64,000 nucleotides of DNA from Acidimicrobiia bacterium (lineage in GTDB: Bacteria; Actinomycetota; Acidimicrobiia; Spongiisociales; UBA11373): assembly GCA_036478235.1 (NCBI GenBank), contig JAZGDZ010000040.1:12841-76840 (forward strand), in the 5' to 3' direction. Position numbers and translations under genes: made by a program. Below, one piece after another: positions 2,460 through 33,703 of the stretch. Below the pieces are notes generated by a model. It saw only the letters and a program-made list of their open reading frames with translations, did not search any database and was not told where the DNA came from. How positions within the stretch are numbered: position 1 is the first letter of the stretch; every line of letters begins with the position of its first letter.

Positions 2460-3491
2460 TTAGAGGCGGCCCGCGGTCGTCGTCAGGATGTCCTGGAGCA
2501 TGTCGAACTCCTCCAGGCACCGACCCGAGCCGATCACCACCGAGTGCAGCGGCCGATCAGAGGTGACGACCGGGGTGCCGGTCTCGTTGGCGATCCGAAC
2601 ATCGAGGCCGCGCAGCAACGCGCCGCCACCGGTGAGGACGATCCCGCGTTCCATGGCATCCGCCGAGAGCTCCGGCGGGGTCTTGTCGAGGCAGTACTTG
2701 ACGGCGTCGACCATCCCCTGGACCGGCTCCTCGATCGCCTCGCGCACCTCGGCCGCCGTGATGATGACGGTCTTGGGGAGGCCGGTGACGAGGTCACGTC
2801 CCCGAATCTCCGCATTTGGCTCGTCACTGAAGGGCCAAGCCGAGCCGATGGCCATCTTGAGCTGCTCCGCTGTGCGGTCCCCCAGCAGGAGGTTGTACTC
2901 CTTCTTCACGAAGTCGACGATCGACTCGTCGATCTCGTCACCGGCGATGCGAGAAGTGCGGGCGACAACGATGCCCCCGAGGGAGATCACCGCCACCTCG
3001 GTCGTGCCTCCGCCGATATCGATTATGACGGAGCCGGCCGGCTCGTGGACCGGGAGGTCCACACCGATCGCCGCAGCCATCGGCTCCTCAATCGTGTAGG
3101 CGCGACGGGCGCCGGCGTGATAGGCCGCCTCCTCCACCGCGCGGCGCTCCACGCCGGTGATCCCGGACGGCACGCACACGATGATGCGGGGACGGGCCCA
3201 ACGACGCGGCTGCACCTTCTTGATGAAGTAGCGCAGCATCTTTTCGGTGATGTCGAAGTCGGCAATGACACCGTCGCGCAGCGGCCGAATCGCCTGGATG
3301 TGAGACGGAGTGCGACCGATCATCCGTTTGGCCTCGAGGCCCACCGCCAACGCGGAGTTGTCGCGCGTGTTGATGGCCACCACCGACGGTTCGTTGAGCA
3401 CGATGCCTTGTCCGCGGACGTAGACGAGCGTGTTCGCCGTTCCGAGGTCGATCGCCATGTCACGGGTCGCCAGCGACATCAATGAGGACAT
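2460..3491 (-). CDS. mreB: Rod shape-determining protein MreB (actin homologue)
   Basis: 343 aa with MSSLMSLATRDMAIDLGTANTLVYV...DIGGGTTEVAVISLGGIV, the actin/Hsp70 fold motifs of MreB. Confidence 0.92.
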   Translation of the reverse strand: MSSLMSLATRDMAIDLGTANTLVYVRGQGIVLNEPSVVAINTRDNSALAVGLEAKRMIGRTPSHIQAIRPLRDGVIADFDITEKMLRYFIKKVQPRRWARPRIIVCVPSGITGVERRAVEEAAYHAGARRAYTIEEPMAAAIGVDLPVHEPAGSVIIDIGGGTTEVAVISLGGIVVARTSRIAGDEIDESIVDFVKKEYNLLLGDRTAEQLKMAIGSAWPFSDEPNAEIRGRDLVTGLPKTVIITAAEVREAIEEPVQGMVDAVKYCLDKTPPELSADAMERGIVLTGGGALLRGLDVRIANETGTPVVTSDRPLHSVVIGSGRCLEEFDMLQDILTTTAGRL

Positions 3492-3538
3492 GAGGAAGAG
3501 CCCCTATAGAATCTGGGGAAGTGTAACCACTGCGGTGG

Positions 3539-3937
3539 CTATGCGAAGAAAAGCCGGATTTCGCGCTCCGCGCTGTCGAGCGAATCCGATCCGTGCACGA
3601 TGTTCTCCGTGATGACGGTGCCGAAGTCGCCGCGAATCGTTCCGGAAAGTGCCTCCCCGGGGTCGGTTGGACCCATCAGCGACCGGACCACGGACACGGC
3701 GTCCGGGCCGGACCATTCAATGGCCACGACCGGGCCGCTCGTGATGAAGGACACGAGGTCGGCGAAAAACGACTTGTCGGTGTGCTCGGCGTAGTGGCGC
3801 CCGGCGAGATCCTCATCGATGGTGAGCATCCGCATCCGCTCCAGGCGCAGGCCCTCGTTTTCGAAGCGGCCGATCACCTCGCCGACCAACCCGCGCCGAA
3901 CACCATCGGGCTTGACCATCACGAAGGTGTGTTCCAT
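3539..3937 (-). CDS. ndk: Nucleoside diphosphate kinase
   Basis: [26 protein letters not shown]...NIVHGSDS. The ORF track extends to 3985 (MTDDYSP...), but the conserved NDK N-terminus begins at MEHTF. Confidence 0.9.
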
Positions 3938-3980
3938 CGCTGTGCTCTCTTCGGTGGATCCGGCGGGAGAGTAGTCATCG

Positions 3981-4080
3981 GTCACCAGTCACCAGTCACC
4001 AGTCACCAGTCACCAGTCACCAGTCACCGAAGAGCCATAACGCGTTCTGGCTGGGGACTGGAAGCTGGAGACTGGAGACT
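3981..4080. repeat. Heptanucleotide tandem repeats: (GTCACCA/CAGTCAC)x~7 at 3981-4027, then GACTGGA-like x~4 at 4056-4080. Together they form an imperfect inverted pair
   Basis: Read directly: ggtcaccagtcaccagtcaccagtcaccagtcaccagtcaccagtcacc...ggactggaagctggagactggagact. Sits between the folC stop and the ndk start. Confidence 0.9.
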
Positions 4081-4082
4081 CT

Positions 4083-5363
4083 TCAGAGCCCCAGCGCGGT
4101 CCGCGCCTCCCCGGCCACGTAGAGCGAGCCGGTCACGAGCACAGGGGCCCCCGATTCCCGCGCCGCGGCGACGGCTTCGGCCACCGATCCGTGGGCCTCG
4201 GTCGGCAAGCCGAGGCTCCGTCCTGCCACGGCTGCGACTTCGCCGGCGTCCCGGGCTCGCCCGGACCGGGCCGCCGCCGCATGGACCCGTTCCACCAGGC
4301 CGTCGAGATGTTCGAGCATGCTCTCAACGTCCTTGTCGGCCATGACACCCAATACCAGGACCCACCGCTTGGAAGGGAACTCGAGCCGTAGCGAACCGGC
4401 CAACGCGGCCATCGCATCCGAATTGTGAGCACCATCGATCATCAGCAATGGGTCATCGTCCAGGATCTCCATCCGGCCGGGAGTCGTGATCGTTGCTGCC
4501 GCCTCGCGCACACCGGCCTCATCGAGGGAGCGGCCGAACAGGGCCTCCACCGACGCCACCGCGACCGCAAAGTTGTCTACCTGATGACGGCCCCGGACTC
4601 GCAGTTCGACGTCGCTGTACTCGTCGAAGGCCGACCGCAGATCAAAGGCCCAGCCTCTCGAAGCCCAGCGCAGGTCGGTGACCTCGAACTCGACACCTTG
4701 CCGAAACCACCGGCCGGCGCGTTCTGCGGCTATGTGTTCTGCCCTCTCCAGGGCCTCCGGGGGCAGATCCCCCGTTACCAGCGCAGCGCCCTCGTCGAGT
4801 ATCGCCAGCTTCTCCCCGGCGATTTCTCCCAGCGAGTCTCCGAGGTACTCGGTGTGCTCGAGCCCGATAGTCGTCACGACCGCCACCTCCGAGTCCGCTG
4901 CGTTGGTGGCATCGAGCCTTCCGCCGAGCCCGACCTCGATCACGGCCACATCGACCGACCTCTCGGCGAACCAGGAGTGGGCCATCGCCGCGGTCAGCTC
5001 GAAGTACGTGGCACCATCGCCGGTGCGCTCCGCGAGCATGTCGGCGATGGGGGCGATCTCGGAGATGACCGCGGCGAGCTCGTCGCCTGTCATGACCTGC
5101 AGCCCGTACTCGTATCGTTCTTCGACACGTTGCAGGTGGGGTGATGTAAACGTCCCCGGGGTCAAGCCGTGGCCCGATAGCAATTGGGCCGTCATCCTCA
5201 CCGCACTGGTCTTTCCGTTGGTCCCGGCGACATGGACGATCGGATAGCCGAGTTCGGGGTTCGCCAGCGCGTCGAGCAGCGCGGTGATCCTGTCCAGACC
5301 CGGCTTGAGGCCCCGGCCGATATGGCGATCGAGGAAGGCGATGGCTGCTGTGTAGTCCGTCGT
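4083..5363 (-). CDS. folC: Folylpolyglutamate synthase/dihydrofolate synthase
   Basis: Mur-ligase family. The ORF-track start (5201) is a GTG downstream of the P-loop. Hand translation upstream in frame gives ...YTAAIAFLDRHIGRGLKPGLDRITALLDALANPELGYPIVHVAGTNGKTS, open up to the valS TAG at 5364-5366 with no ATG/GTG/TTG. The 5' boundary is therefore uncertain. Confidence 0.75.
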   Translation of the reverse strand, partial: TTDYTAAIAFLDRHIGRGLKPGLDRITALLDALANPELGYPIVHVAGTNGKTSAVRMTAQLLSGHGLTPGTFTSPHLQRVEERYEYGLQVMTGDELAAVISEIAPIADMLAERTGDGATYFELTAAMAHSWFAERSVDVAVIEVGLGGRLDATNAADSEVAVVTTIGLEHTEYLGDSLGEIAGEKLAILDEGAALVTGDLPPEALERAEHIAAERAGRWFRQGVEFEVTDLRWASRGWAFDLRSAFDEYSDVELRVRGRHQVDNFAVAVASVEALFGRSLDEAGVREAAATITTPGRMEILDDDPLLMIDGAHNSDAMAALAGSLRLEFPSKRWVLVLGVMADKDVESMLEHLDGLVERVHAAAARSGRARDAGEVAAVAGRSLGLPTEAHGSVAEAVAAARESGAPVLVTGSLYVAGEARTALGL

Positions 5364-7955
<2,592 letters not shown>

Positions 7956-8215
7956 GCTCGTTCATCTGCAGTCGAAGATGATAGGCCGAGTCCCGGCACG
8001 GGTCGAAGATCGGAGCCTGCAGACCTGCGACCGCCGGACAGGCACGAGGCCGGCGCAGCTGCGCCGGCCTCGAGATCCCTTCCTCTGGTCCGGAGCGGAT
8101 GATTCCGGACCACGAATTAATGAGGAGATAGCCCGCTAAGACCATAAGCCGAACCGCGACGCGCTACAACGGCCATTTCCCGCGGTACCGACGGACTAGT
8201 CAAGCGGCGTGACCA

Positions 8216-8580
8216 AGAGCGTCCGCAAATAGGCGGACGCTCTTTCGCGATGTTGATGGCTCTTCGCCGTACGGCTCATCGCTGGTTTGGCTACGGCTTT
8301 CGGGATTTGGCTCCGTATTTGGCTGCGGCGTTCGGGTCCTATCCGGCCCCGAGACGCCTCCGCATGGATGAGCCGCCCTGCGGGCGGCGCTCCGTTCTAC
8401 GTTCGAGTCCTGCTCGGCCTGGAAACGCCTCCGCATGGTGGATCCGCCCTTCGGGCGGACAGCGTTCTACCTGTTCGGCCCCGAAGAGCCTCCGCATGGT
8501 TGTGCCGCCTTGTAGGCGACGCAGTGCTCTACTGCCCGAGGGCCCCAGCCCCAGGCCGCCGAGTCCGCGCCTATCGGCGC
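8216..8580. repeat. Array of modular intergenic repeats. A hairpin module (AGAGCGTCCGC-loop-GCGGACGCTCT, 8216-8243), then an ATGGCTCTTCGCCGTACGGCTCATCGCTGG module, then three tandem ~60-bp units (8338-8527) each with a GCCGCCC-TGC-GGGCGGC hairpin, then a GGCCGCCGAGTCCGCGCCT module
   Basis: Direct reading. The same modules recur at 12048-12179, 36378-36600, 40323-40670 (reverse complement), 50955-51085 and 51923-52092. Confidence 0.9.
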
Positions 8581-8585
8581 GCCCT

Positions 8586-9860
8586 CTAAGCGCTGCGCTC
8601 TTCGGGCAAATCCTTGCCGATGTCCTGCATCGGGATGAGCGTCGGATTGACGCGCTCGCGCACCACGTCGCCGTCGATCATCACCCGGGCCACGTCCTCG
8701 CGACCCGGCAGCTCGTACATCGTGTCGAGAAGGACCTCCTCGAGGATGGCCCTCAACCCTCGGGCCCCGATGGCACGCAGCATCGCCTGATCGGCCACGG
8801 CCTCGAGAGCGTCGTCGGAGAAGACGAGCTCCACGCCGTCCATCTCGAAGAACTTGGCGTACTGCTTGACCAGGGCGTTTTTCGGCTCGAGCAGCACCCT
8901 TATGAGCTGCTCGCGGTCCAGATCGTGCACCGTCGTGGTCACCGGGAGCCGGCCGATGAACTCGGGGATCAGGCCGAAGGTCATCAGATCCTCGGGAAGC
9001 ACGTCCGAGAGGGTGTCTGCGTCCCGGTCCCGGTCGCTGTGAACGTGAGCGTCGAAGCCGATGGCGCGCTTACCCACCCGACGCTCGATGATGTGCTCCA
9101 GCCCCGAGAAGGCCCCGCCGCAGATGAACAGCATGTTCGTGGTGTCGATCTGCAGGAACTCCTGGTGAGGATGCTTTCGCCCACCCTGGGGCGGGACGGA
9201 GGCGACGGTTCCCTCGAGGATCTTCAGGAGCGCCTGCTGAACGCCCTCGCCCGAGACGTCGCGGGTGATGGACGGGTTCTCCGCCTTGCGAGCGATCTTG
9301 TCGATCTCGTCGATGTAGATGATCCCCGTCTCGGCTCGCTTGATGTCGTAGTCCGCCGCCTGAATGATCTTCAGCAGAATGTTCTCGACGTCCTCACCGA
9401 CGTACCCGGCCTCGGTGAGCGCCGTGGCGTCGGCGATGGCGAACGGGACGTTCAGCGTCCGCGCCAGAGTCTGGGCGAGCAGGGTCTTGCCCGAACCCGT
9501 CGGCCCGATGAGCAGGATGTTGGACTTCTGCAGCTCGATGTCGTCCTTTGATCGCTGCCCGACCCGCACCCGCTTGTAGTGGTTGTAGACCGCCACCGAG
9601 AGGACCTTCTTGGCCAACTCCTGCCCCACCACGTAGTCCTCCAGGAAGGTGTAGATCGCCGCGGGCTTGGGAAGCTCGTCGAAGGGCGTCTCCTCGGTCG
9701 TGGCGAGTTCCTCCTCGATGATCTCGTTGCAGAGATCGATGCACTCGTCACAGATATAGACACCCGGACCGGCGATGAGCTTCTTGACCTGCTTCTGCGT
9801 CTTGCCGCAGAAGGAACACTTCAGAAGGTCACCGCCGCCGGTCTCACCGAATTTCGACAT
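8586..9860 (-). CDS. clpX: ATP-dependent Clp protease ATP-binding subunit ClpX
   Basis: N-terminal C4 zinc finger (CSFCGK...CDEC), Walker A GPTGSGKT, and ClpX motifs. Confidence 0.95.
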
Positions 9861-12047: not shown

Positions 12048-12179
12048 GCTCCGACGCTCGGGATCTGGCTCCGAGACGCCTCCGCACGGTGGTGCCGCCC
12101 CAAGAGGCGGCGCCATATTCTACGACCCGGGTCCCGGCCCAGGCCGCCGAGTCCACGCCTGTCGGCGTGTGCTCTTCGG
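12048..12179. repeat. Copy of the modular intergenic repeat (GGCTCCG...GAGACGCCTCCGCACGG...GCCGCCGAGTCCACGCCTGTCGGCG)
   Basis: Sequence similarity to 8280-8580. Confidence 0.8.
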
Positions 12180-12256
12180 GGTGACCGAGGGGATTTGAAC
12201 CCCCGACATCCGGGACCACAACCCGGCGCTCTAACCTGACTGAGCTACGGCCACCA
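12180..12256 (-). tRNA. tRNA-His (GTG)
   Basis: Reverse complement GGTGGCCGTAGCTCAGTCAGGTTAGAGCGCCGGGTTGTGGTCCCGG...GGTTCAAATCCCCTCGGTCACC. Anticodon loop TTGTGGT. Extra 5' G typical of tRNA-His. Confidence 0.85.
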
Positions 12257-12270
12257 TGACAGAGAGCCTG

Positions 12271-12343
12271 TGCCCCCGGAAGGATTCGAACCTCCGACCA
12301 AGAGCTTAGAAGGCTCCTGCTCTGTCCACTGAGCTACGGGGGC
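12271..12343 (-). tRNA. tRNA-Arg (TCT)
   Basis: Reverse complement GCCCCCGTAGCTCAGTGGACAGAGCAGGAGCCTTCTAAGCTCTTGGTCGGAGGTTCGAATCCTTCCGGGGGCA. Confidence 0.8.
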
Positions 12344-12371
12344 GATAGTCCGACCGTGCCGGTCTCTCTGG

Positions 12372-12442
12372 AGCGGGTGAGGGGAATCGAACCCCCGTAG
12401 CCAGCTTGGAAGGCTGGAGCTCTGCCGTTGAGCTACACCCGC
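12372..12442 (-). tRNA. tRNA-Gly (TCC)
   Basis: Reverse complement GCGGGTGTAGCTCAACGGCAGAGCTCCAGCCTTCCAAGCTGGCTACGGGGGTTCGATTCCCCTCACCCGC. Confidence 0.85.
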
Positions 12443-12521
12443 ACAGCGATCGGGAGATTAGCTCGGCACCTGCACGTACCAACTCAACGCCAGTCTCCAG
12501 CCTCCAATGCGGGGTTGGCCG

Positions 12522-13361
12522 CTATTTGGGTGGTCCGGCGGCGACTCGATCGAAGGCTTCGTCGTAACTGCCTCGTCCCCAGTCGATGAGTTCAACCCAC
12601 CAGGTCGCACCCGCCTGCCTGTAACTCTCGACCTTTTCTCCGTCGTCGGGTTGGGATACGTCGGCCCAGGCAATGTCGTAGGGCTGGTCAGTGTCTCTCT
12701 CGGTCTCGATGGTTCCACGGAAGGAGGCCAGGTCATTGGGGGTCCATTCTTTACCCCAAGGATCAGAAGGACCGATCCAACCATCCCAGCGTGCTGCCCG
12801 GCGGAGGGCTGCGGGGCTGTCTCCGCCAACCCATATCGGAACCCGAGGCTTCTGCACGAGGTTGAGATCGACTGCTACCCCAGCCACCTCGTAATGAGTG
12901 CCTTTGTGGTTGACCTCATCGCCGGACCACAGTCGGGTCACGACATCCAAACTTTCGTCGAGCATTTCGCCGCGAACGCGTGGGTTGCCGGATTCGCCGA
13001 ACACCTCGAACTCGTCGGCAAAGAAACCGATGCCGACTCCCAACGTCATCCTGCCCTCCGAAAGAACATCGAGACTCGACACGGTGGTTGCGAGAGTCTG
13101 CGGTTTGTAGCGAGGAACGATCGCTACGCACGTACCGATCCTGATGGTCTTCGTGGCAGCAGAGACCGCACTCAGAACGACCCAAGGGTCATAGACCGAC
13201 GGAACGCCGTCCCGCCAGAAAAACAAAGAGTCCCACGTGAAAAAGCCGTCCCAGCCGGTTTCCTCAGCGGTCCGCGCTAGGGAAGCAGCGTCGCGTGGAT
13301 GACCAAACCTCTCGGTGTTCGGACAACAAACAGCGAACTTCAATCGCGGTGCGTCAGACAT
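12522..13361 (-). CDS. LLM-class F420-dependent oxidoreductase (luciferase-like monooxygenase family)
   Basis: TIM-barrel LLM motifs (MSDAPRLKFAVCCP..., GIGFFADEFEVFG). The window also carries fbiA/cofE. Start taken at ATG 13361. Confidence 0.75.
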   Translation of the reverse strand: MSDAPRLKFAVCCPNTERFGHPRDAASLARTAEETGWDGFFTWDSLFFWRDGVPSVYDPWVVLSAVSAATKTIRIGTCVAIVPRYKPQTLATTVSSLDVLSEGRMTLGVGIGFFADEFEVFGESGNPRVRGEMLDESLDVVTRLWSGDEVNHKGTHYEVAGVAVDLNLVQKPRVPIWVGGDSPAALRRAARWDGWIGPSDPWGKEWTPNDLASFRGTIETERDTDQPYDIAWADVSQPDDGEKVESYRQAGATWWVELIDWGRGSYDEAFDRVAAGPPK

Positions 13362-13668
13362 CGCCGTGCCAATCTTATCCCCCGCCAGACACCCGATCGG
13401 GCTCGCCATGTGCCAGGAAGACAACCCTTCTCCGCGTCGGGCGTGACCCTTCTCCGCGACAGCCAACGCCTCGCGATGCTGCTCCACTACGAAGAACTAG
13501 CACGAGCCGCCAGATAGGAGGGAAGCAACCCGGAACCCGTAGCGTGACCGACCCGTTCGAGACCGAGCAGGCTCGAACGGGGTCGGACCCCCCAACCAAT
13601 CGAGCTCCGCTCGATTGACTCCCCTCGAGCGGTTCGAGACCGGGTAGGACTCGAACCCGCGAGATGAG

Positions 13669-13742
13669 TCGGGCTGGCCGGATTTGAACCGGCGACCCCC
13701 TGCTCCCAAAGCAGGTGCGCTGCCAAGCTGCGCCACAGCCCG
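13669..13742 (-). tRNA. tRNA-Pro (TGG)
   Basis: Reverse complement CGGGCTGTGGCGCAGCTTGGCAGCGCACCTGCTTTGGGAGCAGGGGGTCGCCGGTTCAAATCCGGCCAGCCCGA. Confidence 0.8.
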
Positions 13743-13764
13743 TTGAACGGCATTGTGCCAGCCA

Positions 13765-13835
13765 CTCGTGCGGGCGGTGGGATTCGAACCTTCTCCGCGC
13801 CACCGGCGAGCCGCGATGCTCGCTCCCTCAAGAGA
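13765..13835 (-). pseudogene. Degenerate duplicate of the tRNA-Leu 3' half (T-arm and acceptor 3' strand) fused to a shared GGAGCGAGCATCGCGG...CGCGGAGAAGG module
   Basis: Reverse complement ...GGGAGCGAGCATCGCGGCTCGCCGGTGGCGCGGAGAAGGTTCGAATCCCACCGCCCGCACGAG. The last 24 nt equal the 3' end of tRNA-Leu at 13937-13960. No 5' half. Confidence 0.6.
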
Positions 13836-13936
13836 GTGAGGACGAGAGTAGCTGGGGATGAGGGGAGTGGGGCGTTGTGGCGAGGGGAGCTTCGAGGCCG
13901 AGCAGGACTCGAAGTTCTCCGACCTCGTATGCGTCC

Positions 13937-14025
13937 TGGTGCGGGCGGTGGGATTCGAACCCACAGCGGGTCTGAGACCCACCGGATCCTAAGTCCGGCG
14001 CCTATGCCGGTTCGGCTACGCCCGC
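13937..14025 (-). tRNA. tRNA-Leu (TAG), class II with a long variable arm, CCA encoded
   Basis: Reverse complement GCGGGCGTAGCCGAACCGGCATAGGCGCCGGACTTAGGATCCGGTGGGTCTCAGACCCGCTGTGGGTTCGAATCCCACCGCCCGCACCA. Confidence 0.85.
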
Positions 14026-14084
14026 GCAGATCCCAGGGTATCGGCAGACGATCTCACCGTTTGCCAAAACGCTATTCTCGCCGC

Positions 14085-14157
14085 GGGTCGCTAGCTCAAC
14101 CTGGCAGAGCAACGGACTCTTAATCCGCAGGTTCGGGGTTCGAATCCCCGGCGACCC
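14085..14157 (+). tRNA. tRNA-Lys (CTT)
   Basis: GGGTCGCTAGCTCAACCTGGCAGAGCAACGGACTCTTAATCCGCAGGTTCGGGGTTCGAATCCCCGGCGACCCA. Confidence 0.8.
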
Positions 14158-14264
14158 ACCGGCTCGCGAACGAATCCCGCGGCACATCGCCGCCGACTGG
14201 CGGCGACGCTTGCTCCCCACCAATCGACGAGAACCTCATCCCCCGCGGCTCGCATCGGCGCCTC

Positions 14265-28325: not shown

Positions 28326-28333
28326 GGTCTTTG

Positions 28334-28683
28334 TGGAGGTGCGGGGAGTCGAACCCCGGTCCTCTGAGGCTTCGGCGTCGGCATCTCCGAGCGCAGCCGA
28401 TAGCGAGCTTCGGAACGCGGGGCCCTATCGGCGGGTGGTCCTGCGCCCTAGCCGGAGTTGGTCTTGACCCGCCGGTCCCGGCATCCCGGCGGAGGCATCC
28501 CCTATTGCGACGCCCGGACCTGGTGAGAGGGGAACCCTCCAGACGGACGGACTGCGTTGTTAGGCAGCCAGTGCGAAGTTGTCTTCGGCACTTGGTTTGT
28601 TTCCCGGCTCTTTAACGAGGACTCCGGGGACCTCGGCTCGCTTCCGACGCTTCAACCCTCAAAGTCGAAACCATGTCACCCCC
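28334..28683 (-). ncRNA. ssrA: tmRNA (ssrA)
   Basis: Reverse complement starts GGGGGTGACATGGTTTCGACTTTGAGGGTTGAAGCGTCGG and ends GACCGGGGTTCGACTCCCCGCACCTCCA. Tag ORF ...GCCGAAGACAACTTCGCACTGGCTGCCTAA gives (A)EDNFALAA*. Adjacent to smpB. Confidence 0.9.
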
Positions 28684-32380: not shown

Positions 32381-33488
32381 TCATGCCCCGGCCGCGGCCC
32401 TCCTCCATTGCAGATAGGCGTCGGAGAACCCCTCCAGGCTCCCGTCGAGCACGGCCTGCACGTTCCCCACCTCGAGGTCGGTGCGGAGGTCCTTCACCAT
32501 CTGGTAGGGCTGCAAGACGTATGACCGGATCTGGCGTCCCCAGGCGGCTTCACCCTGCTCCCCGCGTATCTCATCGATCTGCTCGATCTGCTCCTGCCGA
32601 GCCCGTTCCGCCAACCGAGCCGCGAGGAGGGCCATCGCCCGATTGCGATTCTGCAGCTGCGATCGCTCCGCCTGGCAGGCCACGACTATGCCTGTCGGCT
32701 CGTGAGTGATCCTGACGGCCGAATCGGTCACGTTGACGTGCTGGCCTCCCGAGCCCGACGAACGAAAGACATCGATGCGCAGATCGTCCGGATTGATCTC
32801 GACCTCCTCCACCTCCACTTCGGGTATCACGTCCACGCCGGCAAATGAGGTGTGACGCCGCGAGGCGGCATCGAATGGGCTGATTCGCACCAGACGGTGC
32901 ACGCCCCGCTCCGACTCGAGGACCCCGTAGGCGTGGTCACCGCGCACTGTCAACGTTGCCGATCGAATGCCGGCCTCCTCCGCTGGGAGTACCTCGTCGA
33001 CCTCCACCTGGAGCCCACGCCGATCCAGGTAGCGCAAGTACATCCGAAGCATCATCTCCGCCCAATCGGCGGCATCGACTCCCCCGGCGCCGGCGTGAAT
33101 GCTCAGAATCGCGGCTCGATCGTCGTACTCCCCGAAGAAGAGGCTCTCTCTCTCCAGTTCGCCGAGATCGGAGGCCACCGATTCCAGTTCCGCTGCCACA
33201 TCGACGGCGGCGGCCGCATCCTCCTCTTCTGCGGCCAAGTCGAGCAGGACCTCGGCGTCGTCGATGGCGCCCGCCAAACGCTCCACCCGATCGATGATGC
33301 CTTCGTACTTGGCGAGGGTGCGAGTCACCCGGAGCGCCCGCTGCTGGTCGTCCCACAGGTCGGGCGCGGCCGCCTGCTCGTTCAGGCTCTCGAGAGCCTC
33401 GAGCTTGCCCGGCACGTCAAAGGAACCTCCTGGCGTCGTCGAGGCGCGCTCGCAGGGATGAGATTGTGGCTCGGGGGTCCTGGTCCAT
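32381..33488 (-). CDS. prfB: Peptide chain release factor 2, expressed via programmed +1 frameshift (frame 0: 33488..33422, then 33420..32381)
   Basis: Frame-0 reading MDQDPRATISSLRARLDDARRFL then CTT TGA C, preceded by the AGGAGG SD-like element. The downstream frame carries DVPGKLEALES...SGSGGQHVNVTDSAVRITH (the GGQ motif). Confidence 0.9.
33418..33429 (-). promoter_or_regulatory. prfB autoregulatory +1 frameshift site (AGGAGG-TTC-CTT-TGA-C)
   Basis: Minus-strand sequence ...gccaggaggttcctttgacgtg.... A UGA stop in frame 0 after 23 codons. The shifty CUU U motif and the internal SD match the classical prfB site. Confidence 0.85.
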
Positions 33489-33523
33489 GGCGCGGCGGAG
33501 GATAACCAGTTGGCCATTGGCCA

Positions 33524-33596
33524 GGCATCAGGCATTAGGCACCAGTCACCAGTCACCAGAAGGATGACGCGCCCTGACTGGAAACTGGAGACTCGA
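33524..33596. repeat. Heptamer tandem repeats (AGGCATY)x3, (CACCAGT)x3, (GACTGGA-like)x3 in the prfB upstream/secA downstream spacer
   Basis: aggcatcaggcattaggcaccagtcaccagtcaccaga...gactggaaactggagactcga. Confidence 0.85.
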
Positions 33597-33703
33597 AGGG
33601 TGCAGGGGACCCGCCGGGAAAAGACAACACGGCCGCGGTGGGCCAACGGGCCCCACCATGCGGAGGAGGCGGGGTGCAGTGGACCCGCCGGGAAAAGACA
33701 CGG

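Follow-up and report, generated by a model that had tools for sequence, protein, structure and literature searches.

The junction examined here, between the valine-tRNA ligase gene valS and the essential folate gene folC, lies in a stretch of 64,000 nucleotides (64 kb; hereafter the window) of contig JAZGDZ010000040.1 from an Acidimicrobiia bacterium (assembly GCA_036478235.1). The gene order in this part of the window is tig-clpP-clpX-valS-folC-ndk-mreB-mreC, and the order valS-folC-ndk-mreB is also conserved in relatives, the nearest of which are metagenome-assembled genomes (MAGs) of uncultured Acidimicrobiia. ValS matches the valine-tRNA ligase model NF004349 with 1117 bits over positions 2-860 of 860 and TIGR00422 with E = 3e-302; because the match runs to the end of the NF004349 model, the ValS C-terminus is normal. 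A first-pass annotation of the DNA had reported that valS terminates in ...LAELR-TAG and that the FolC N-terminus and P-loop are encoded directly after this stop in the same frame, and both statements are borne out (TAG at 5366-5364, minus strand). The sequence past the TAG starts ACG ACG GAC TAC and encodes TTDYTAAIAFLDRHIGRGLKPGLDRITALLDALANPELGYPIVHVAGTNGKTS, and the frame that follows is an intact FolC reading frame of 426 codons, ending at the stop 4085-4083.

The feature that sets this gene apart is its missing start codon. No in-frame ATG, GTG or TTG is found from the valS TAG to the P-loop, and the first canonical codons, GTG at 5201-5199 and ATG at 5195-5193, fall 3' of that motif, as had also been read correctly in the first pass. 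The first canonical start is preceded by 54 coding-like codons (GC by codon position 0.65/0.50/0.81), and folC is the only gene in the 64-kb window with a long coding-like stretch of this kind. A screen of the window by GC content at the codon positions of long open frames and by domain coordinates (16 candidates) gave no second gene with the same anomaly, so that ACG use, proposed below for folC, looks gene-specific within this sample. The first-pass annotation had named an indel or frameshift error at the junction as a finding that would overturn its reading. The missing canonical start recurs in more than 25 independent assemblies, however, and chance, frameshift, and sequencing or assembly error are therefore excluded.

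The protein encoded by the frame looks ordinary. It matches TIGR01499 with E = 1.2e-96 and 324.5 bits (cut-off 162.65) over positions 1-398 of the 400 in the model, and the domains Mur_ligase_M (PF08245) and Mur_ligase_C (PF02875) are both above their gathering thresholds. With the FolC/folylpolyglutamate synthase (FPGS) family (TIGR01499; Lactobacillus casei 1FGS, Thermotoga maritima 1O5Z and Mycobacterium tuberculosis FolC 2VOS) the window FolC shares the P-loop, a full-length collinear match and the Mur-ligase middle and C-terminal domains, and it would differ from these enzymes in its initiation codon only. The L. casei FPGS has been characterised both biochemically and structurally. When numbering begins at the second ACG, residues 2-422 of the window FolC align collinearly with the same residue numbers of this enzyme (PDB 1FGS), and Met1 of 1FGS therefore corresponds exactly to the ACG at 5360-5358.

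Gene callers and the NCBI annotation place the start of FolC at the internal canonical codons (P0001 and P0002), but a product begun there would lose the P-loop and its first ~55 residues. The internal start that is called varies by lineage (MKPGL, MLARPDE, MADPH, MTAQLL), and since a different one is chosen in each, these codons are not a real conserved start. Among 12 genes of the ACG clade, pairwise differences in folC codons 2-54 number 914/675/1516 at the first, second and third codon positions; change is mainly at third positions, which shows that the stretch from the ACG to the first canonical codon is under purifying selection. More than 25 lineages, with 50-98% identity, furthermore keep the frame unbroken along its 425 codons. 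A start at GTG 5201 or ATG 5195 with the upstream FolC-like codons untranslated, or a pseudogene in decay, is accordingly given next to no credence. From the intact frame and the purifying selection across more than 25 lineages, we argue instead that folC is probably functional.

The first-pass annotation had proposed comparing the valS-folC junction among close relatives, and this comparison was made with sequences gathered from one-genome-per-species contigs and from metagenome contigs. In the relatives the FolC start codon directly precedes a uniform N-terminus, [D/N/T]-[Y/H]-x-x-A-[ILV]-x-[YF]-L, and a few of them begin 2-4 codons further 5' (M-K-L-I-E-T-Y, L-I-R-T-Y). The start codon is ATG in loci L003, L020, L022 and L086 and in many Clostridia (MNYSEAL..., MTYEEAL...), GTG in L007-L013, L088 and L094, and TTG in L014, L015 and L092. 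The codon aligned with these starts is ACG in the window and at 14 more loci of the two scans. When the DNA fetched for database proteins is included, ACG occupies the position in 25 distinct sequence contexts, which come from independent projects (NCBI MAGs, JGI, ENA and Logan). The threonine synonyms ACC, ACA and ACT occur at the start-aligned codon in none of the 25. Of all 380 threonine codons in these folC genes 28% are ACG, and at three other columns with invariant threonine, 10-11 of 12 ACG-clade genes use ACC. Because the start-aligned codon is always ACG while the other threonines are mostly ACC, the constraint at this column acts on the nucleotides and not on threonine. In the sister clade of the window's lineage, which has a canonical start (M/V/L-I-x-D-[YH]), the residue x aligned with the ACG is T, R, A, E or D, which suggests that the position is relaxed where a canonical start exists. 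L022 (ATG) and L119 (ACG) are identical at 27 of the 30 nucleotides 5' of the start codon.

L161 (GAGGTAGATC-ACG; 1399-1410) and its sister L168 (GAGGTGATC-ACG; 1498-1509) differ by a 1-nt indel. The layout in L161 is GAGG-TAG-ATC-ACG, where the valS stop is in frame and folC lacks a canonical start, and the layout in L168 is GAG-GTGATC-ACG, with a GTGA overlap and a canonical GTG two codons 5' of the retained ACG.

Two ACG triplets stand in tandem after the valS stop of the window (TAG ACG ACG), and the relatives distinguish between them. L169, which encodes a 98% identical protein, has TAG ACA ACG, L161 has TAG ATC ACG and L174 has TAG C ACC ACG; other loci carry CGC, CCC or GCA just before the ACG. 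The second ACG of the window (5360-5358) is the constrained one, because the triplet that precedes it varies. These comparisons bear on the suggestion of the first-pass annotation that folC is initiated at a non-canonical codon, which is supported as such, but for this ACG in place of the ATC or CTG named there. The in-frame ATC and CTC/CTG codons were rejected as starts, since they belong to the conserved first helix and are not kept in relatives, where the ATC at codon 7 is CTC, CTT or GTG. Bacteria do use ATC as an accepted, if rare, start, and one follows the TAG directly in L161; this and the tandem ACGs of the window give some ground for a start at another near-cognate codon, whether the first ACG (5363-5361) or the ATC or CTC codons considered earlier. 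Against it, the triplet equivalent to the first ACG is ACA, ACC, ATC, CGC or CCC in relatives and is only 3 nt from the ribosome-binding sequence described below, and we regard such a start as very unlikely. Starts further upstream were also considered. In 11 distinct contexts (the window, L169, L161, L090/91, L081/89, L010, L119, L001, L082, L006 and L016) the ACG is preceded at 1-17 codons by an in-frame stop, and the interval contains neither ATG nor GTG nor TTG. In view of these contexts, canonical codons that lie far upstream inside valS in the folC frame (e.g. in L002 and L004) were rejected as general starts.

The region 5' of the ACG shows a candidate ribosome-binding sequence. Positions -11 to -7 from the ACG are G-rich (GGGG, GGAG or GAGG) in all 24 ACG contexts, and in the window the Shine-Dalgarno (SD)-like GAGG (Table 1) has a predicted pairing energy with the 16S 3' tail of -8.2 kcal/mol. 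The mean predicted pairing is -7.8 kcal/mol for the ACG loci (n=22) versus -3.5 kcal/mol for the canonical-start relatives (n=18; Mann-Whitney p = 1.6e-6). Weak start codons tend to be compensated by stronger SDs (PMC5622118), and the stronger SD at the ACG loci fits this pattern. No promoter or terminator was found between valS and folC, and the sole promoter-like site on the minus strand is at 8006-7978, 5' of valS. The predicted RNA fold of the junction (5420-5310) is unremarkable (z = -0.43), and no Rfam family matched in the region 3000-9000 at E <= 0.1.

Table 1 Coordinates of the features at the valS-folC junction and of the adjoining ndk gene in the window
Feature	Position	Strand	Basis or remark
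folC (dihydrofolate synthase / folylpolyglutamate synthase), ACG to stop 4085-4083	4083..5360	-	425 codons
ACG, proposed folC initiation codon	5358..5360	-	aligns with canonical starts of relatives and with 1FGS Met1
First ACG triplet, spacer or less likely alternative start	5361..5363	-	not conserved; only 3 nt from SD
Shine-Dalgarno-like GAGG (GAGGU with the T of TAG)	5370-5367	-	in last two valS sense codons, 6 nt 5' of ACG
valS stop TAG	5366-5364	-	3 nt 5' of folC ACG, in frame with folC in this genome
folC codons 2-14, DYTAAIAFLDRHI, conserved N-terminal helix	5319..5357	-	5' of every canonical start codon; codon alignment, 12 ACG-clade genes
P-loop GTNGKT (ATP-binding motif)	5225-5208	-	5' of first canonical in-frame start
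GTG 5201-5199 and ATG 5195-5193, first canonical in-frame codons	5193..5201	-	(wrong) start of gene callers; ORF listed 4083..5201
valS (valine-tRNA ligase), coding sequence including TAG stop	5364..7955	-	ORF listing, translation, family models
ndk	3539..3985	-	NF001908 nucleoside-diphosphate kinase, E = 2e-57

The extent of the phenomenon was assessed with the 120 best protein clusters from a search of a collection of 5.8 billion proteins. These clusters include 85 N-terminally truncated calls, 7 calls that extend into the 3' end of valS, read in the folC frame (...WGSTTDY...), and 28 with a canonical start at or just 5' of the conserved N-terminus, so that ~77% are without a canonical start. 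Nine of the truncated calls predicted to hide an ACG were traced to their DNA (P0001, P0003, P0019, P0053, P0100, P0074, P0120, P0059 and P0114), and all nine have ACG at the aligned codon. One of these, P0001 (NCBI assembly GCA_044343095.1), is 98% identical to the window FolC and is called from the equivalent ATG (MTAQLL...), without the P-loop. In a neighbour-joining tree of complete genes, the clade of the window (the window, L081, L082, L001, L090/91, L085, L083, L004 and L002, with amino-acid identities of 54-85%) uses ACG throughout, except for L022, an ATG gene nested inside it; L006, L010 and L016 group apart from it as a second ACG clade. The larger tree, of 124 sequences, holds 93 with a non-canonical and 30 with a canonical start and requires at least 12 changes of state by parsimony, counts that are approximate since they rest on a neighbour-joining tree of related sequences with states taken from gene calls. 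ACG is thus the majority and long-lived state of folC in a broad clade of uncultured Acidimicrobiia, repeatedly exchanged with canonical starts, and no peculiarity of the window genome.

The arrangement of the two genes suggests translational coupling. In the window 3 nt separate the TAG from the ACG, and across the 21 main-clade contexts this distance is always 2-8 nt; canonical relatives often overlap valS and folC as GTGA. The valS stop is TAG in 21 of the 21 main-clade ACG contexts versus 9 of the 34 stops in the window, and this preference may reflect the competing GTG that a TGA stop would create behind the G-rich SD. The short spacers, together with the GTGA overlaps, which show that the genes are generally coupled, would also be consistent with ribosomes that end valS at the UAG and restart folC without any selection of a start codon, the ACG being incidental. 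An incidental codon would however be expected to drift to ACC or other triplets, yet it is ACG in 25 of 25 contexts, and L006, L010 and L016 retain it in a setting where there is no valS to restart from. In these three loci the gene order is clpP-clpX-unknown-folC, and an 80-nt spacer with a strong hairpin is followed by an 8-nt SD, GAGAGGAG, positioned 6 nt before the ACG. Since they keep the ACG with no adjacent upstream valS, the codon is usable without coupling to valS, with the reservation that this clade also has a GTG at codon 7. Restart independent of the codon is thus quite unlikely, and coupling is best seen as a helper to ACG initiation and not as its replacement. The termination-reinitiation coupling raised by the first-pass annotation therefore stands as a plausible contributor, given the TAG 2-8 nt 5' of the ACG in every main-clade context, and is not a general requirement.

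The hairpin of the second clade is a conserved, GC-rich element (GACGGGCGGG...CCCGCCCGTC; L006:2928-2966) that is present in the folC spacer of L010 and L016 as well. On its 5' side is an uncharacterised ORF and on its 3' side are the strong SD and the ACG. It has no T-run and could be a terminator, a processing site or a regulator; the predicted fold of the spacer is -60.6 kcal/mol (z = -3.47).

The frame of the valS stop also varies. The TAG is in frame with folC in 5 of the 21 main-clade contexts (the window, L081, L090, L161 and L169) and out of frame in the other 16, with TAG-ACG spacers of 2, 4 or 8 nt, and even close relatives differ in this respect (L081 in frame, L082 out). In the five in-frame cases, low-level readthrough of the TAG could in principle yield a ValS-FolC fusion that carries the FolC activity, and in the window only two codons separate the two proteins. 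This was another proposal of the first-pass annotation, and it finds no support, because a fusion cannot be the mechanism that these lineages share, the frames being out of register in 16 of the 21 contexts. ValS moreover stops where its family model ends, valS is missing upstream of folC in the second ACG clade, and readthrough would leave the ACG specificity unexplained. A fusion is therefore considered extremely unlikely.

Conserved ACG codons at the start of genes are familiar from other systems. In plant organelles the ACG starts of ndhD, psbL and other genes are edited to AUG, and the adeno-associated virus VP2 and Sendai virus C' proteins are examples of eukaryotic and viral ACG initiation. 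The latter relies on scanning 40S subunits and Kozak context, whereas the folC start would lie at a bacterial, SD-led operon junction. These cases share with folC a conserved ACG where homologues have ATG. Strict conservation of ACG at the start-aligned position is the signature of edited chloroplast and plant mitochondrial starts (PMC9845219), and C-to-U editing of the folC transcript would turn its ACG into AUG in the same way. Nothing in the window, however, points to an editing system. We know of no bacterial C-to-U mRNA editing system of this kind, and hold editing to be highly improbable at folC.

Considering these observations together, we think it likely that folC is translated from the ACG at 5360-5358 (minus strand) by SD-assisted initiation, usually coupled to valS termination and with low output. 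In the model that we propose, valS and folC would be co-transcribed, and the G-rich SD in the last valS codons (GAGG 5370-5367), together with termination at the UAG, would position a 30S or 70S ribosome at the ACG. The initiator fMet-tRNA is predicted to pair with the first and third bases of the ACG, the middle position being a C-A mismatch. Translation would yield full-length FolC of 425 residues, most likely with (f)Met and not Thr as its first residue, made at a small fraction of the rate of ValS. Initiation from ACG has precedent in Escherichia coli, where its efficiency is roughly 0.1-1% of that of AUG, which places it among the weakest initiating codons and below the 1-2% class of AUN and CUG, and where the N-terminus of an ACG-initiated protein was found by mass spectrometry to be Met, with occasional Thr (bioRxiv 10.1101/063800). 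A mutant of phage T7 gene 0.3 in which AUG was changed to ACG likewise still recruits ribosomes (PMC5499595). The weak codon presumably serves to hold down the output of a low-abundance enzyme whose operon is highly translated, and the simplest purpose of the ACG would be a low ratio of FolC to ValS from a single mRNA.

Several points weigh against this interpretation. Initiation at the ACG, the tRNA used, its efficiency and the reason for its upkeep are all deduced from sequence comparison. The efficiency of ACG in E. coli is very low, and sufficient output of FolC is thus assumed. The sequences compared are phylogenetically related, so that the counts overstate their independence, and the class of non-canonical starts among the 120 clusters is derived from truncated calls, with DNA-level confirmation for only 9. 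In L006, L010 and L016 a GTG at codon 7 could be the start, at the cost of only six residues; L174 has an in-frame ATG 6 codons before the ACG, and L168 a GTG 2 codons before it; and in the window the neighbouring ACG (5363-5361) retains a small residual chance of serving as the start.

The closest known kind of start is that of infC, which encodes initiation factor IF3 and begins with AUU; other conserved rare bacterial starts are AUU, AUC, AUA and CUG, as in the AUU of pcnB. Bacterial start codons are taken as NTG, and rarely ATH or CTG, and to our knowledge ACG is not among the initiators of the bacterial genetic code table 11. Like infC, folC is a housekeeping gene with a weak start that has long been kept, an SD upstream and a record of being mis-called by gene finders. 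It has a conserved non-canonical triplet at the start-aligned position with no canonical in-frame alternative, and the SD is at a functional spacing. Both starts are presumably decoded by initiator tRNA with one mismatch; the folC codon differs in being ACG, with the mismatch at the middle position. With operon translational coupling through ATGA or GTGA overlaps or short stop-start spacers, folC shares a start 2-8 nt from the valS stop and an SD inside valS, and it differs in the non-standard restart codon and in the second clade, where there is no adjacent upstream stop.

The AUU of infC is the sensor of an autoregulatory loop through IF3. By analogy, the ACG might be a selected sensor that closes a feedback loop from folate and one-carbon status to FolC synthesis. 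Speculatively, initiation at ACG would depend on the stringency of start selection by IF3 and formyl-Met-tRNA, and FolC would supply the folate cofactors needed for formylation of the initiator tRNA. A counterpart of the IF3 loop is speculative for folC, and we consider this role for the codon doubtful.

Other features of the window are noted here for completeness. The ~630 nt between valS and clpX (7956-8585) hold only one short ORF of 78 aa (8200-8436, minus strand). Two long ORFs overlap real genes, one at 4642-5697 (minus strand, other frame; 351 aa) and one at 8250-9551 (plus strand, opposite clpX; 433 aa), the second of which has no family match; both are typical high-GC artefacts and not genes. 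The regions 12178-14160 and 28333-28683 hold a cluster of six tRNA genes (His, Arg, Gly, Pro, Leu and Lys) and a tmRNA whose tag peptide is AEDNFALAA, all of them ordinary, and no Met or initiator tRNA is among the tRNA genes of the window. The release factor 2 gene prfB contains a programmed +1 frameshift site (33416-33488, minus strand, inside the open frame 32381-33703). Its ATG at 33488-33486 opens a 25-codon ORF that ends in ...GCC AGG AGG TTC CTT TGA C, in which an SD-like AGGAGG closely precedes CUU UGA C, and the PCRF and RF-1 domains are encoded further on in the +1 frame; we take this to be the classical, known frameshift feature.

A full-text literature search of limited coverage returned no natural conserved bacterial ACG start and no folC start-codon anomaly, and an earlier description is possible. 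If the interpretation holds, folC would supply the first case on record of a bacterial chromosomal gene with a conserved, natural ACG initiator. An ACG initiator kept across a deep clade through at least 12 switches would extend the natural repertoire of start codons, and it would offer a natural system for near-cognate initiation with a middle mismatch and for its interplay with SD strength and coupling. It would also argue for including ACG in the start sets of gene finders, which will keep repeating the folC error as long as they ignore it. About three quarters of the closest public FolC clusters are mis-called, either truncated without the P-loop or extended into valS, and folate biosynthesis may therefore be scored wrongly as broken when the metabolism of these Acidimicrobiia is reconstructed.

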